A stretch of DNA of 22,909 nucleotides, taken from assembly GCF_003334305.1 (NCBI RefSeq), contig NZ_QOWS01000039.1; one strand, given 5' to 3'. Source of the stretch: Escherichia coli. Lineage in GTDB: Bacteria > Pseudomonadota > Gammaproteobacteria > Enterobacterales > Enterobacteriaceae. Under the pieces are notes generated by a model that ran no database searches, was not told the origin of the DNA, and saw nothing but the letters and a program-made list of their open reading frames with translations. The number at the start of each line of letters is the position of its first letter. The first letter of the stretch is position 1. The position numbers and the translations under genes were made by a program. Positions 17,560 to 22,221 of this stretch are shown here, in pieces.

Positions 17560-19473
17560 TTAGTTAACGGGCACCGCCTCAAACACCAGCGTTTCCAGCG
17601 GCTGCAACGTAATCACCGTCGCGTTTTTATACTCAACGGGCACGGTTTTATTGCTGCCGTATACCGCTTTCAGACTAAACTGCGCCACGTCTCCTGTCGG
17701 TATTTCGAAATCCTTAGCCAAATCCAGATAGTAGGCCTGTGGCTTATCCGATGGGTTGCGCAAACCGAGAATGGCTTTGTCTTTGCTCCAGGATGCCCAG
17801 CCGTACACGGCAAGCGCCGTTGGGTCGCCGCCAATCCAGTGGGTATCAACCAGCACGCTGGCATTTTCCTTCGACCATTTTGCAGCCTTCGCCAGCGTAT
17901 CCCACTTCACCTTGTTCAGCATGGACGGGGTAATATACAGCTCCTGCAGCTGGGTGCCGGTCGCGAAGTAGCTCCAGACCTGATCGGCAAAGTCGCTGTC
18001 CGTTTGCACCTTCTCTAACCCGTAATAGGCATTCTCAGCGCTGACTATCCCGTGGTACATCAGCGAGTTCAGCGGGAACAGAGGGCCTTTACGGACAATG
18101 GAGCGGTACGTCTCGGCATCGCGGTAGGTCATCCACTGCTGCACCGGCGTACCGGAACCATACAGGTTGATGTCATCTCCCTGACGCCAGATAGAATCAG
18201 CGTAGAACAGCCAGGACGGGCTGGCGTCGGTGCCGGTGGTCAGGTTGATAAACAGATTCGGGGTTGCGCTGCGCATATTGTGCAGCAGGGCGATTGATGC
18301 ATCGAAATCTGAGGCGAACGAGCTGCCTTTGATATGCGAACTGGCGTTACCCATCCCGTCGAGTTTAAACGAGGTGATGTGCTCGTTTTTGATAAGCTTG
18401 ATGATCCGCTCATTGAAGTTTTTAAAGTAGTTCGCTCCCGACAGCGCCAGTTTGCCGTCCACGGTTTCGAACCCATACTCTTTTGCATGCGAAACGCGAA
18501 CGTCGCGCGGTTTGTTGTAGCCACCCCACGGTGAAAGCCATAGCCCAACGGAGCTGTGCAGGCTGTCGGCTTTCTCCCGTACTTTGCTAAAACCGTTTCT
18601 GAATGCCGTGCCAAATAGCCAGCGTCCGGTCAGATCGTCCCAGCCATCATCCAGCAGGAAGGCGTCCAGCGCCACGCCGCGGCCCGTAATGAACTCCTTG
18701 TTCCACTCGTCCATACGCCCCAGCACATCCTGTTCAGTGTAGGGAGTGAAAAAGCCGATATCCATCCAGCTGTTGTAGTGCAGATAAGGCTTGTATGGGC
18801 GTGGACGTACGTCATTAATAAACTGGTTCACGCTGCGGCGCAGCTGGCTGGTTTCCGGGAAAGTGCCGAACCAGGTAGTAAAGCTGACCGGCGCCTCTGG
18901 CTGAATCGGCGTTTTCAGCTCTACGTTGAGATTGGTGGTGGCTTCATAGGCGTAGGTATTCACGATCGGTTTATCCGGCAGGATAAAGAACGAGTCCGCA
19001 ACGATCGGAGAGCTATTGATTGCGCCGTCTACGTAAGGGGCCTGAGACTGTTTTTGGGTCGGGAAGAAGGTGATTTTAGCGACGTCGCGCGGTTGCCCCA
19101 CGGCGGCAATGGTGTAGCCGATGTTGGCGTATTTTCCCTTCACTAGGTTCAGCTTCACCGTGACGTTAAAATCCGGGTGCGTAAAGTCGATGACAATCGC
19201 GTTATCCTGCTTTTCGACGTGCTTGATTTTGAAATCCGCGGTGTGGATTTTACTCTCATCCGGCAGCGTCAGAAAGAACAACTCCTGCGGCGTGAGCGGA
19301 TGGTTAGCCTTGTTGTCCTTCACCACGACCGTTGAGTTTGTATCATCAAACAAGAGGGCAATATTGTCGTTATTGAGCGCGTAGTTTGCTGCCGCTGCAC
19401 CATGAGAAACGCAGAGAGCCAGCAGTGAGAGAGTGAGCACTTTCTTCATCGGGGTAAGATCCTTATTTGTCAT
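17560..19473 (-). CDS. Secreted hydrolase-like protein (putative glycoside hydrolase)
   Basis: N-terminal Sec-type signal peptide (MKKVLTLSLLALCVSHGAAAANYA; likely start at the internal MKK, nt 19449). FLLDDGWDD motif reminiscent of clan GH-D alpha-galactosidase-type hydrolases. GC-richer composition than the island. Confidence 0.6.
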   Translation of the reverse strand: MTNKDLTPMKKVLTLSLLALCVSHGAAAANYALNNDNIALLFDDTNSTVVVKDNKANHPLTPQELFFLTLPDESKIHTADFKIKHVEKQDNAIVIDFTHPDFNVTVKLNLVKGKYANIGYTIAAVGQPRDVAKITFFPTQKQSQAPYVDGAINSSPIVADSFFILPDKPIVNTYAYEATTNLNVELKTPIQPEAPVSFTTWFGTFPETSQLRRSVNQFINDVRPRPYKPYLHYNSWMDIGFFTPYTEQDVLGRMDEWNKEFITGRGVALDAFLLDDGWDDLTGRWLFGTAFRNGFSKVREKADSLHSSVGLWLSPWGGYNKPRDVRVSHAKEYGFETVDGKLALSGANYFKNFNERIIKLIKNEHITSFKLDGMGNASSHIKGSSFASDFDASIALLHNMRSATPNLFINLTTGTDASPSWLFYADSIWRQGDDINLYGSGTPVQQWMTYRDAETYRSIVRKGPLFPLNSLMYHGIVSAENAYYGLEKVQTDSDFADQVWSYFATGTQLQELYITPSMLNKVKWDTLAKAAKWSKENASVLVDTHWIGGDPTALAVYGWASWSKDKAILGLRNPSDKPQAYYLDLAKDFEIPTGDVAQFSLKAVYGSNKTVPVEYKNATVITLQPLETLVFEAVPVN

Positions 19474-20649: not shown

Positions 20650-22221
20650 TTAAATTAAGGCTTCAATGCCGGTTTTGACGCTCTGTACCTGCGGTCCGAT
20701 GATCACCTGCACGCTATGCGCATCAAGCATCACCACTGACAACGCGCCTGCCGCTTTCAGCGCCTGCTGATCGATAAGGCCCATATCTTTCACCACCAGA
20801 CGCAAGCGGGTAATACAGTTATCAAGCGACTCAATGTTCTCTTTACCTCCGAGCGCACGTAGGATAAGCTCGTGATCGTATTTTGATTTTCCGCGCGCGC
20901 GGGTGTTCGCCTCGACGGCTTGCTGTGCCCCCTGAACATCCACTTCGCGGCCCGGCGTTTTGATGTTGTGTTTGAGGATGTACCAGCGGAAGACAAAGAA
21001 GTAGATGGCAAACCAGGCAATACCAACCGGGAACAGCAGATACCATTTGGTCGACATTCCCTGCATCACGCCGAAAATCAGCAGATCCAGAATGCCGCCG
21101 TCGGTATTGCCGATGGTCACTCCCAGCAGGGCCATTACCATCAGCGCCAGGCCAGACATGACGATATGGAAGGCGTAAAGCGCGGGGGCGATAAACAGGA
21201 ACAGGAACTCAATCGGCTCTGAAATACCGGTGACGACGGAAACCAGCACGCCGGAAAGCAGCAACCCCTTAATGACCGGCCGATTTTCCGGACGCGCGGT
21301 GCGGTAGATGGCGTAAGCCACGGCGGGTAAACCGAAGATAAAGGTCGGCATAAACCCTTGTGACAGAAACGCGGTAACGTGCGGGCTAAACGGCAGGCCG
21401 GCTTTGAGCTCGGCGTAGAAGATATTCAGCGCCCCGGCGACCTCATGACCATTTACCATTTCAATGCCGCCTGCTGGGGTAAAACGCACCATCGCCAGCA
21501 GGATGTGGTGCAGACCAAAAGGTTTAAGCAGCAGCACGCCTACGCCGTAGAGGAAGGGGCCGAAAACGCTGGTGCTCTGGATGATATGCCCAATGCCCGC
21601 GATGCCCAGCGCGACGTATTCCCACAGCATGGGAATGAACAGACCCACCAGCGACAGGGTGAGCGCGGTAATAATCGGCACGAAACGAATGCCGCTAAAG
21701 AAGGCGAAGGCGTCATGCAGAACCGTGTCCTGAAAACGGTCATGCAGAAAATAGGTGATAACCCCAACCACAATGCCACCTAATACCCCCATCTCCAGGG
21801 TTTGAATGCCCAGCACGATCGATTGTCCTACCTGTTTCATGGTGGCGGGGTCGGCAAGCTGGTGGGTAGCCGTCAGGTAATAATTAATGCTCATGTTCAT
21901 CAGCATGTAGCCAACGAACCCGGCAAAGGCAGCGACCGCTTTGTTGCGCTTGGCAAGCCCCATGGGGATCGCCATGGCAAACATCAGCGGCAGATAGGTA
22001 AAAGCAAAGCCACCGACCATAGCGATAAAGCCAAAGGTCAACTGGGTAAATTCGCCGCCCAGAAAGGGAAAACTAGTAATGGTGGAAGGGCTGGTGACTG
22101 AACTACCGATACCCAGCAGCAATCCCATAAAGGCAAGAAGCGAAACCGGGAACATAAAGGTTTTCCCCAGACTTTGTAAAAACTCCCATAATTTTGATTT
22201 AAAAGATTTTTTTTGTGTCAT
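20650..22221 (-). CDS. malX: PTS system EIICB component, glucose/maltose family (MalX-like)
   Basis: Polytopic EIIC region followed by a C-terminal EIIB domain with the active-site Cys motif NCITRLRL. N-terminus KLWEFLQSLGKTFMFPVSLLAF resembles MalX (recalled). Confidence 0.75.
   Translation of the reverse strand: MTQKKSFKSKLWEFLQSLGKTFMFPVSLLAFMGLLLGIGSSVTSPSTITSFPFLGGEFTQLTFGFIAMVGGFAFTYLPLMFAMAIPMGLAKRNKAVAAFAGFVGYMLMNMSINYYLTATHQLADPATMKQVGQSIVLGIQTLEMGVLGGIVVGVITYFLHDRFQDTVLHDAFAFFSGIRFVPIITALTLSLVGLFIPMLWEYVALGIAGIGHIIQSTSVFGPFLYGVGVLLLKPFGLHHILLAMVRFTPAGGIEMVNGHEVAGALNIFYAELKAGLPFSPHVTAFLSQGFMPTFIFGLPAVAYAIYRTARPENRPVIKGLLLSGVLVSVVTGISEPIEFLFLFIAPALYAFHIVMSGLALMVMALLGVTIGNTDGGILDLLIFGVMQGMSTKWYLLFPVGIAWFAIYFFVFRWYILKHNIKTPGREVDVQGAQQAVEANTRARGKSKYDHELILRALGGKENIESLDNCITRLRLVVKDMGLIDQQALKAAGALSVVMLDAHSVQVIIGPQVQSVKTGIEALI

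Follow-up and report, generated by a model that had tools for sequence, protein, structure and literature searches.

What is a gene for a secreted, hydrolase-like protein doing directly behind malX- and malY-like genes in Escherichia coli? The question is raised by a stretch of contig NZ_QOWS01000039.1 (NCBI RefSeq assembly GCF_003334305.1), 22,909 nt long and referred to as a whole as the window, in which three genes run head to tail on the minus strand between 17560 and 22221. An earlier note on this DNA read them as a malXY operon extended by a hydrolase gene, possibly a paralogous sugar-utilisation cassette. Our analysis points to a different origin. The cassette is probably the captured, truncated tail of an operon for N-acetylgalactosamine (GalNAc): the 3' end of a foreign, Enterobacter-like aga operon, carried on an island with a P4-type integrase and bearing two independent accessory modules, an exported glycosidase and a pair of genes for a phosphotransferase system (PTS) enzyme and a lyase, rather than an extended malXY operon.

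Three contiguous genes on one strand

The first gene (20650-22221, minus strand) encodes a MalX-like PTS enzyme IICB (EIICB) of 523 aa, matching NCBIfam model TIGR02004. The second (19463-20638, minus) encodes a 391-aa lyase of the PatB/MalY family, a pyridoxal phosphate (PLP)-dependent C-S (beta) lyase matching TIGR04350, and the third (17560-19449, minus) a 629-aa member of the Ast/YacT family of "enterotoxins". We refer to these genes as malX-like, malY-like and ast-like. All three open reading frames (ORFs) are intact and, as the earlier note had it, lie on one strand.

The gene starts needed some correction. The longest malY-like ORF opens with a GTG at 20641, and both the NCBI annotation pipeline (PGAP) and the homologs start at the ATG at 20638. 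The ast-like product had been given as 637 aa, the length of the longest ORF (17560-19473), whereas PGAP and all homologs begin at M9 (ATG 19449), which yields 629 aa. With this start, the supposed 11-nt overlap with malY-like turns into a 13-nt gap. The close spacing of about 10 nt therefore stands as two gaps (11 nt between malX-like and malY-like, holding an AGGAGG, and 13 nt between malY-like and ast-like), whereas the overlap was a product of the start codon.

A consensus scan found no promoter-like or terminator-like site in either gene junction, including the one between malY-like and ast-like, where a promoter and terminator of its own would have set the third gene apart. Terminator-like sites were also not in excess in the region (7 observed vs 6.9 in shuffled sequences). 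The co-directional packing is tight enough for the single transcript that the earlier note proposed; transcription as one unit is itself probable from this packing and from the homology of the promoter upstream.

The third gene follows kbaY across species

We compared the surroundings of the gene in 80 species-representative loci of ast-like homologs, together with an alignment of 15 homologous sequences. In 66/80 loci, ast-like lies on the same strand and within ~170 nt downstream of kbaY (or of malY-like or agaD), embedded in a catabolic operon. The usual layout is agaR, then kbaZ agaV agaW agaE ... agaS kbaY, then ast-like and a convergent rsmI. No malX-like or malY-like gene is present in 57 of these 66 linked loci (57/80 overall), while the pair sits between kbaY and ast-like in the other nine: five Enterobacter species, Yokenella, two further Enterobacteriaceae (L020 and L027) and Aeromonas sobria. 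From these counts, ast-like is primarily an aga-operon gene, in most loci the last one after kbaY, and the description of a malXY operon extended by a hydrolase does not fit it.

The pair also occurs on its own. In Salmonella enterica subsp. indica, Morganella morganii and Aeromonas veronii, whose lyase orthologs are 56-82% identical, EIICB and lyase genes directly follow kbaY and no ast-like gene is present. The pair stands alone in Hafnia and is likewise found without ast-like in Firmicutes; it lies 3' of a BglG-type antiterminator in Aerococcaceae, and in a metagenome-assembled genome (MAG) of Cellulosilyticaceae the order is reversed, with the lyase before the EIICB. Locus L027 combines agaBCD, the malX-like/malY-like pair and ast-like in a single aga tail. 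Taken together, this synteny marks ast-like and the EIICB-lyase pair as independent, optional additions to the aga tail.

One further match came from a 5302-nt contig of a "Collinsella sp." MAG (L004, JAIJJM010000184.1), which carries the cassette and encodes the three proteins with 100% identity to the window. This is almost certainly E. coli sequence that was binned by mistake with an actinobacterial MAG.

Flanking remnants and control region

The sequences on both sides of the cassette also belong to an aga locus. Upstream of malX-like, a 134-aa ORF (22335-22739) matches in one frame both KbaZ (positions 1-27) and KbaY (positions 197-284) by NCBIfam. The in-frame deletion remnant itself, kbaZ'::'kbaY, covers 22335-22673 on the minus strand and joins KbaZ residues 1-27 to KbaY residues ~197-284; PGAP annotates two aldolase pseudogene pieces here. 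By blastn, identity to K-12 is 97% for the kbaZ part and only 78% for the kbaY part. The agaR-kbaZ divergent control region follows (22674-22909, minus), with the kbaZ promoter and AgaR-operator-type CTTTC/TTTCGTTT repeats. The window ends inside this region, and the annotation of the identical record from E. coli ATCC 43896 has an intact agaR just past that end. At 97.4% identity, positions 22604-22909 match the K-12 intergenic region between agaR and kbaZ together with the opening 70 nt of kbaZ. In K-12, control of the kbaZ promoter by AgaR is established; Ray and Larson reportedly described it in 2004. The near-identity to this characterised region suggests that the cassette would be regulated by AgaR and inducible by GalNAc or galactosamine (GalN).

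On the opposite side, a 3' remnant of rsmI (17232-17490, plus strand) points towards the cassette. It is 85% identical to K-12 rsmI, and PGAP treats it as a pseudogene for a 16S rRNA methyltransferase that is interrupted by a stop codon. Most Enterobacteriaceae loci have a convergent rsmI downstream of ast-like, and the remnant shows where the donor's aga locus originally ended on the right. Directly 3' of the last cassette stop codon is a REP-like palindrome (17513-17538), read from the sequence as CCGGGTAAGGCGCAAGCGCCACCCGG, at which our scan found no canonical intrinsic terminator.

The block is chimeric. While 22604-22909 is K-12-like, positions 17232-22592 are only 78-85% identical to K-12, yet collinear at 86% with Enterobacter quasihormaechei (L005). 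The deletion junction, where a 43-nt copy of the kbaZ 5' end is also found in inverted orientation (22587-22629 and 22592-22604), points to recombination of a native-type aga locus with a foreign one. The resulting island order, garD' - agaR - kbaZ'::'kbaY - three genes - rsmI', mirrors the garD - agaR - aga operon - (yra) - rsmI order of K-12. The cassette hence occupies the same slot as the tail of the K-12 aga/gam operon: after kbaY, before convergent rsmI and under the agaR/kbaZ control region. The contents of the slot differ. In K-12 the tail is agaBCD-agaI, a mannose-family PTS for GalN plus AgaI, whereas here it holds a glucose-family EIICB, a PLP-dependent lyase and a predicted exported glycosidase. 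The body of the aga operon has been deleted in this island.

The 113-nt spacer between the kbaY remnant and malX-like has a predicted RNA fold of -21 kcal/mol (z = -2.0), including a hairpin at 22250-22281 (minus strand) with an 8-bp GC-rich stem and no U-tract. Enterobacter, Yokenella and Enterobacteriaceae bacterium 89 have the hairpin in the corresponding place, and in Salmonella (L085) another sequence forms the same pairing. The arms are GAAGGCGC/GCGCCTTC here, GGTCATGA/TCATGGCC in Salmonella and AGCGTTAT...ATAACGCT in Raoultella. More generally, GC-rich hairpins without a U-tract lie 3' of kbaY in many genera, with varying sequences and preserved pairing; they are also seen in the spacers of L017, L021, L022, L026, L029, L031, L033, L039, L040, L046, L049 and L054. 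The hairpin may mark where the core aga operon ends, acting ahead of the accessory genes as a partial terminator or an mRNA stabiliser. A weak TTACCT-17-TATAAG element lies upstream of malX-like. Raoultella and Klebsiella (4 loci) were the only other genera whose kbaY/ast-like spacers contained AgaR-box-like TTTCRTTT sequences, so a dedicated AgaR site before ast-like genes is not general.

Distribution, erosion and selection in E. coli

How does this aga tail fare in its present host? The chromosome of E. coli ATCC 43896 carries the region with 100% identity, as do other strains, and a second matching place is reported on the chromosome. In ATCC 43896 the island has a P4-like integrase, insertion sequence (IS) elements and remnants and a Mokosh defence system, and the region itself is flanked by rsmI', kbaZ'/'kbaY, agaR and garD' remnants. 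The full cassette is present in 313/5426 complete genomes (~6%), with 99.6-100% identity among the matches listed. Around 190 records from B2 strains (e.g. UTI89 and ATCC 25922) have a 94%-identical variant that keeps the lyase and ast-like genes and has malX reduced to 81 nt, and some strains retain only a 534-nt pseudogene fragment. The decayed B2 block (L003, 19290-27172, from ATCC 25922) lies in an island of the same kind, beside genes for ketoacyl-ACP synthases, FabG2, a dehydratase, an MMPL transporter, LolA-like and thioesterase proteins and a glycosyltransferase, a cluster resembling the aryl-polyene type. The B2 island also adjoins dgcT.

Such erosion raises the possibility that the E. 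coli cassette is a functionless relic, a decaying foreign aga-rsmI block whose ORFs are intact only because it arrived recently. Of the alternatives to the aga-tail reading this one survives best, although we consider it unlikely. It accommodates the pseudogenes on both sides (rsmI', kbaZ'::'kbaY and garD'/UxaA'), the IS debris, the deletion of the cassette's own aga catabolic genes, the shortened variants and the low frequency among complete genomes. It fits less well with three intact, nearly invariant ORFs, or with an in-frame fusion placed directly behind an intact AgaR-type promoter and next to an intact agaR. It also sits uneasily with the substitutions seen when the two diverged variants from E. 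coli (dS 0.31) are compared: ast-like has a dN/dS of 0.10, which indicates purifying selection within E. coli despite the eroding locus, and the value for the lyase, 0.26, is more relaxed. Compared to the Enterobacter and Yokenella orthologs, dN/dS is 0.03-0.10 across the three genes (0.03-0.04 for malX-like, 0.06-0.07 for malY-like), indicating purifying selection on all of them.

The PTS-lyase pair

The malX-like EIICB scores 722.8 bits against TIGR02004 (cutoff 632.2) and is 53% identical to K-12 MalX. The EIIB phospho-cysteine motif is present as NCITRLR (residue 468), and the EIIC motif as GISEPIEF (residue 332). The protein contains no EIIA domain and is thus presumably dependent on EIIA-Glc. 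The malY-like lyase scores 364.3 bits against TIGR04350 (cutoff 340) and is 30% identical to K-12 MalY; its K238 (SPNKAFN) aligns with the PLP lysine of K-12 MalY, K233 (SGSKSFN). The EIICB gene adjoins the lyase gene in 6/6 further contexts examined, and in our neighbour survey the two form an invariably linked two-gene module.

The likeness to malI-malXY of K-12 is in the arrangement: there, too, a MalX-family EIICB is followed 9-11 nt on by a PatB/MalY lyase. The surroundings are different. K-12 malXY lies between hdhA/malI and add, with add directly behind malY, so the earlier note was right that K-12 has no hydrolase gene at this point. Here, the pair comes after a kbaY remnant, and our synteny comparison found no malI-type regulator adjacent to it. 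With these surroundings and identities of 53% and 30%, the two genes are paralogs and not orthologs of malX and malY. The suggestion of a paralogous cassette consequently holds for the PTS and lyase genes, but not for a self-contained malXY-type operon.

Such an operon, in which the hydrolase would make the substrate of the PTS and lyase and the three would be obligatorily coupled, is in our estimation somewhat less probable still than a functionless relic. The contiguity of the genes, their shared order in E. coli, five Enterobacter species, Yokenella and Aeromonas sobria, and the selection on all three could be explained by it. The coupling it demands is broken in both directions, by the many loci with a hydrolase gene and no pair and by the pairs without a hydrolase gene. 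In Enterobacteriaceae bacterium 89, agaBCD separates the pair from the hydrolase gene, and B2 E. coli have lost malX while keeping the other two genes.

We found no physiological substrate for such PTS and C-S lyase pairs in the literature. The repeated placement after kbaY suggests that the substrate is a GalNAc- or GalN-related conjugate, which would be imported and phosphorylated by the EIICB and then cleaved by the lyase. The malX known as a pathogenicity island marker, part of a BglG-MalX-MalY cluster in extraintestinal pathogenic E. coli, is a different paralog and was set aside.

A bolder idea, to which we give little credence, is that malXY-type pairs, by extension also the long-puzzling malXY of E. 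coli itself, are a route for glyco-amino-acids, including GalNAc-alpha-O-Ser/Thr, and that an exported Ast-type alpha-N-acetylgalactosaminidase extends the aga pathway to protein-bound alpha-GalNAc. It leans on the repeated independent attachment of both modules after kbaY and on the invariable pairing of PTS and lyase. The PTS would take up a sugar attached to Ser, Thr or Cys, such as the Tn-antigen core left after mucin proteolysis, and phosphorylate it at position 6. Beta-elimination by the lyase would then supply the aga pathway with GalNAc-6-P and release pyruvate (or 2-oxobutyrate) and ammonia.

The third protein has a predicted alpha-galactosidase-type fold

The ast-like protein is 77% identical to proteins named enterotoxin YacT (100% query coverage) and ~50-53% identical over its full length to the enterotoxin of Aeromonas bestiarum and A. 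sobria. The family numbers 1673 representatives at 50% clustering, with product names that include "enterotoxin", "enterotoxin YacT", "alpha-galactosidase" and "alpha-amylase family protein". Aeromonas hydrophila/dhakensis Ast, a heat-stable cytotonic enterotoxin (Q8VRN3, 636 aa), and YacT of Yersinia frederiksenii belong to it over their full length, and they resemble the E. coli protein in size, in having a signal peptide and in the invariant motifs. In the E. coli protein, residues 1-20 (19390-19449) form a signal peptide of the classical Sec type, which reads MKKVLTLSLLALCVSHGAAA with ANY behind it. In the AlphaFold2 model the part before residue 21 is disordered or helical. A lipoprotein is unlikely because the cysteine in the signal region is not conserved among homologs.

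Sequence searches with the single protein gave little. It had no match in NCBIfam, none in Pfam-A even at E<=10 (the GH27, GH31 and GH36 glycoside hydrolase models included) and none among PDB sequences by phmmer at E<=1. A profile of 59 diverse family sequences (identity down to 27%) does reach the GH36 alpha-galactosidase 3mi6 with an E-value of 1.2e-9, placing LLDDGW on the GH36 motif LDDGWF and FKLD364G on the nucleophile motif KWDMN. In these 59 sequences W270 and D271 never vary, and conservation reaches at least 90% at D267, K362, D364 and D426. The DDGW motif picked out by the earlier note (residues 267-270; 18640-18651) is therefore conserved family-wide, behind a signal peptide that is indeed present.

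The AlphaFold2 model built from the same alignment (pLDDT 94, pTM 0.91) has three domains: an N-terminal beta-sandwich (22-196), a (beta/alpha)8 barrel (222-530) and a C-terminal beta-sandwich (537-627). This is the architecture of clan GH-D with the N-terminal beta-sandwich typical of GH36, and a Foldseek search of the PDB with the model puts GH36 on top. The comparators were the GH36 enzymes LaMel36A (2xn0), AgaA (4fnp) and the F. plautii galactosaminidase (9ayu/8x1b) and the GH27 rice alpha-galactosidase (1uas). Clan GH-D enzymes are only 10-13% identical to the third protein, which, along with the absence of Pfam and single-sequence PDB matches, sets it apart as a sequence family separate from GH27 and GH36. 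Both the K-x-D nucleophile motif of the clan and its sugar-binding motif of the DDGW type after strand 2 are recovered in the profile alignment and conserved. D364 (18358-18360), at the end of strand 358-363 in the model, is the predicted nucleophile at the end of barrel strand 4, an assignment supported by the alignment. D426 (18172-18174; WRQGDD) comes just after strand 419-421 and is the putative acid/base following strand 6; the profile-PDB alignments stop before it. As modelled, the whole mature protein is taken up by the GH27/GH36-type fold, with no toxin-like extra domain. From fold and motifs, the third protein is most likely an exported retaining glycosidase of the alpha-galactosidase/alpha-N-acetylgalactosaminidase type, which bears out its earlier description as hydrolase-like; the alternative, that it would not classify with glycoside hydrolases, finds no support in the model.

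Published data on relatives are compatible with this assignment. RAST labels ast of Aeromonas as "Predicted exported alpha-N-acetylgalactosaminidase", and the gene has an aminotransferase gene or pdxJ on one side and a tagatose-bisphosphate aldolase gene on the other (PMC7250499). Both the label and these neighbours agree with the comparative context of ast-like, which shares the setting beside a tagatose-bisphosphate aldolase gene, whether an aminotransferase gene is there or not. The SEED/RAST name reportedly goes back to comparative genomics of the GalNAc regulon by Leyn and colleagues in 2012. We found no paper in the searchable literature that links Ast or YacT to glycoside hydrolases or the aga operon, and the Ast and YacT papers examined make no glycosidase reading. 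YacT, 54% identical to Ast, adds to the insect toxicity of Y. frederiksenii (PMC6246891). Ast and YacT were called toxins from the phenotypes of mutants and lysates, whereas for the E. coli protein the evidence from fold, motifs and operon points to a glycosidase.

That the 629-aa protein is a genuine non-enzymatic enterotoxin with sugar genes as incidental neighbours is very improbable: its full-length homology to YacT and the Aeromonas enterotoxin, and the reduced pathogenicity of a yacT deletion mutant to Galleria larvae with altered hemocyte morphology, speak for it, but such phenotypes also fit a glycosidase trimming host glycans, and against it stand the three-domain GH27/GH36-type fold with its catalytic-type aspartates, the large family reaching into Acidobacteria, Chitinophaga, Mucilaginibacter, Verrucomicrobia and Mycobacterium, and the catabolic operon around most of its members.

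The name has itself travelled widely, reaching homologs in phyla of soil and water. Homologs called "Enterotoxin" in the AlphaFold database come from Acidobacteria, Chitinophaga, Mucilaginibacter, Luteolibacter, Akkermansia, Verrucomicrobia and Mycobacterium, and some are multi-domain proteins of up to ~3000 aa. The family-wide label looks like an annotation artefact stemming from Aeromonas Ast.

Proposed origin and mechanism

We propose that the donor locus had the order agaR | kbaZ-agaVWEF-agaA-agaS-kbaY, malX-like, malY-like, ast-like, with rsmI convergent downstream. A deletion in this island has taken everything from kbaZ codon 28 to about codon 196 of kbaY, including the aga catabolic genes. 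In the present arrangement, the E. coli-type, AgaR-controlled kbaZ promoter would read via the fusion ORF and the hairpin into the three genes as a unit. The glycosidase would be exported by the Sec pathway and would most likely free terminal alpha-linked GalNAc, possibly also GalN or galactose (Gal), from mucin-type or other glycoconjugates outside the cytoplasm. The freed sugar could be taken up and catabolised by the native aga PTS and pathway, putative in this host.

Several observations weigh against reading the cassette as a working aga tail. The loss of its aga catabolic genes, and of malX in the B2 variant, together with the mere gene fragment left in other strains, indicates that the cassette in E. 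coli may be on its way out. The hairpin and the weak TTACCT-17-TATAAG element could separate or attenuate expression of the three genes. Specificity for GalNAc is suggested by genomic context, and the top structural neighbours include Gal-, GalN- and arabinopyranose-specific enzymes. No glycosidase action of any Ast/YacT family member was found in the searchable literature. Finally, ast-like lies away from recognised aga genes in 13/80 loci: it stands alone in Kluyvera, next to ebgR/ebgA in Vibrio harveyi and with a GH92 gene and a DeoR regulator in Photobacterium.

Neighbouring elements of the island

Beside the cassette, the window encodes a type I Mokosh anti-phage system on the plus strand. 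MkoA (10677-15647, 1656 aa) matches PDLC03921 over its full length with 2212 bits, and MkoB (15644-17080, 478 aa) matches PDLC03923 with 503 bits; RefSeq names them "AAA domain-containing protein" and "hypothetical protein", respectively. Upstream of MkoA, at ~10169-10504 (12770-13105 in L001), RefSeq annotates a frameshifted "TOTE conflict system archaeo-eukaryotic primase domain" fragment, another defence-related remnant in the island.

At the integrase end, the only Rfam match of the window, far from the cassette, is an RtT RNA (RF00391; 1597-1733, minus strand) beside the P4-like integrase, with a score of 46.3 bits that barely exceeds the gathering score. A low-GC stretch at ~3000-5500 (0.32-0.35, compared to 0.54 in the cassette) covers a gene for a 605-aa hypothetical protein on the minus strand, also beside the integrase. 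ARAGORN found no tRNA genes in the window, and hence the attachment site of the island is not obvious.

Implications

Some of this was already known: the genes are annotated in RefSeq, and a link between Ast and GalNAc utilisation exists as the SEED/RAST label. In the literature searched, neither the fold-level evidence for a GH27/GH36-like "enterotoxin" family nor the recurring association of MalX/MalY-type pairs with kbaY appears to have been published. In E. coli, the cassette is not a core metabolic operon but a chimeric relic that sits on a defence and virulence island. Across species, the region after kbaY is a slot that collects accessory modules, namely agaBCD/agaI, the EIICB-lyase pair and the glycosidase. 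For MalX/MalY-type pairs, placement in this slot is the first contextual lead to a substrate, one related to GalNAc or GalN.

The consequences may reach further for the Ast/YacT family, as ast is used as a PCR enterotoxin marker in many Aeromonas studies. If the glyco-amino-acid route were true, this marker would denote a mucin-foraging glycosidase rather than a toxin. If the glycosidase assignment is true, ast, yacT and the E. coli gene would encode factors for nutrient foraging or glycan trimming and not classical toxins.

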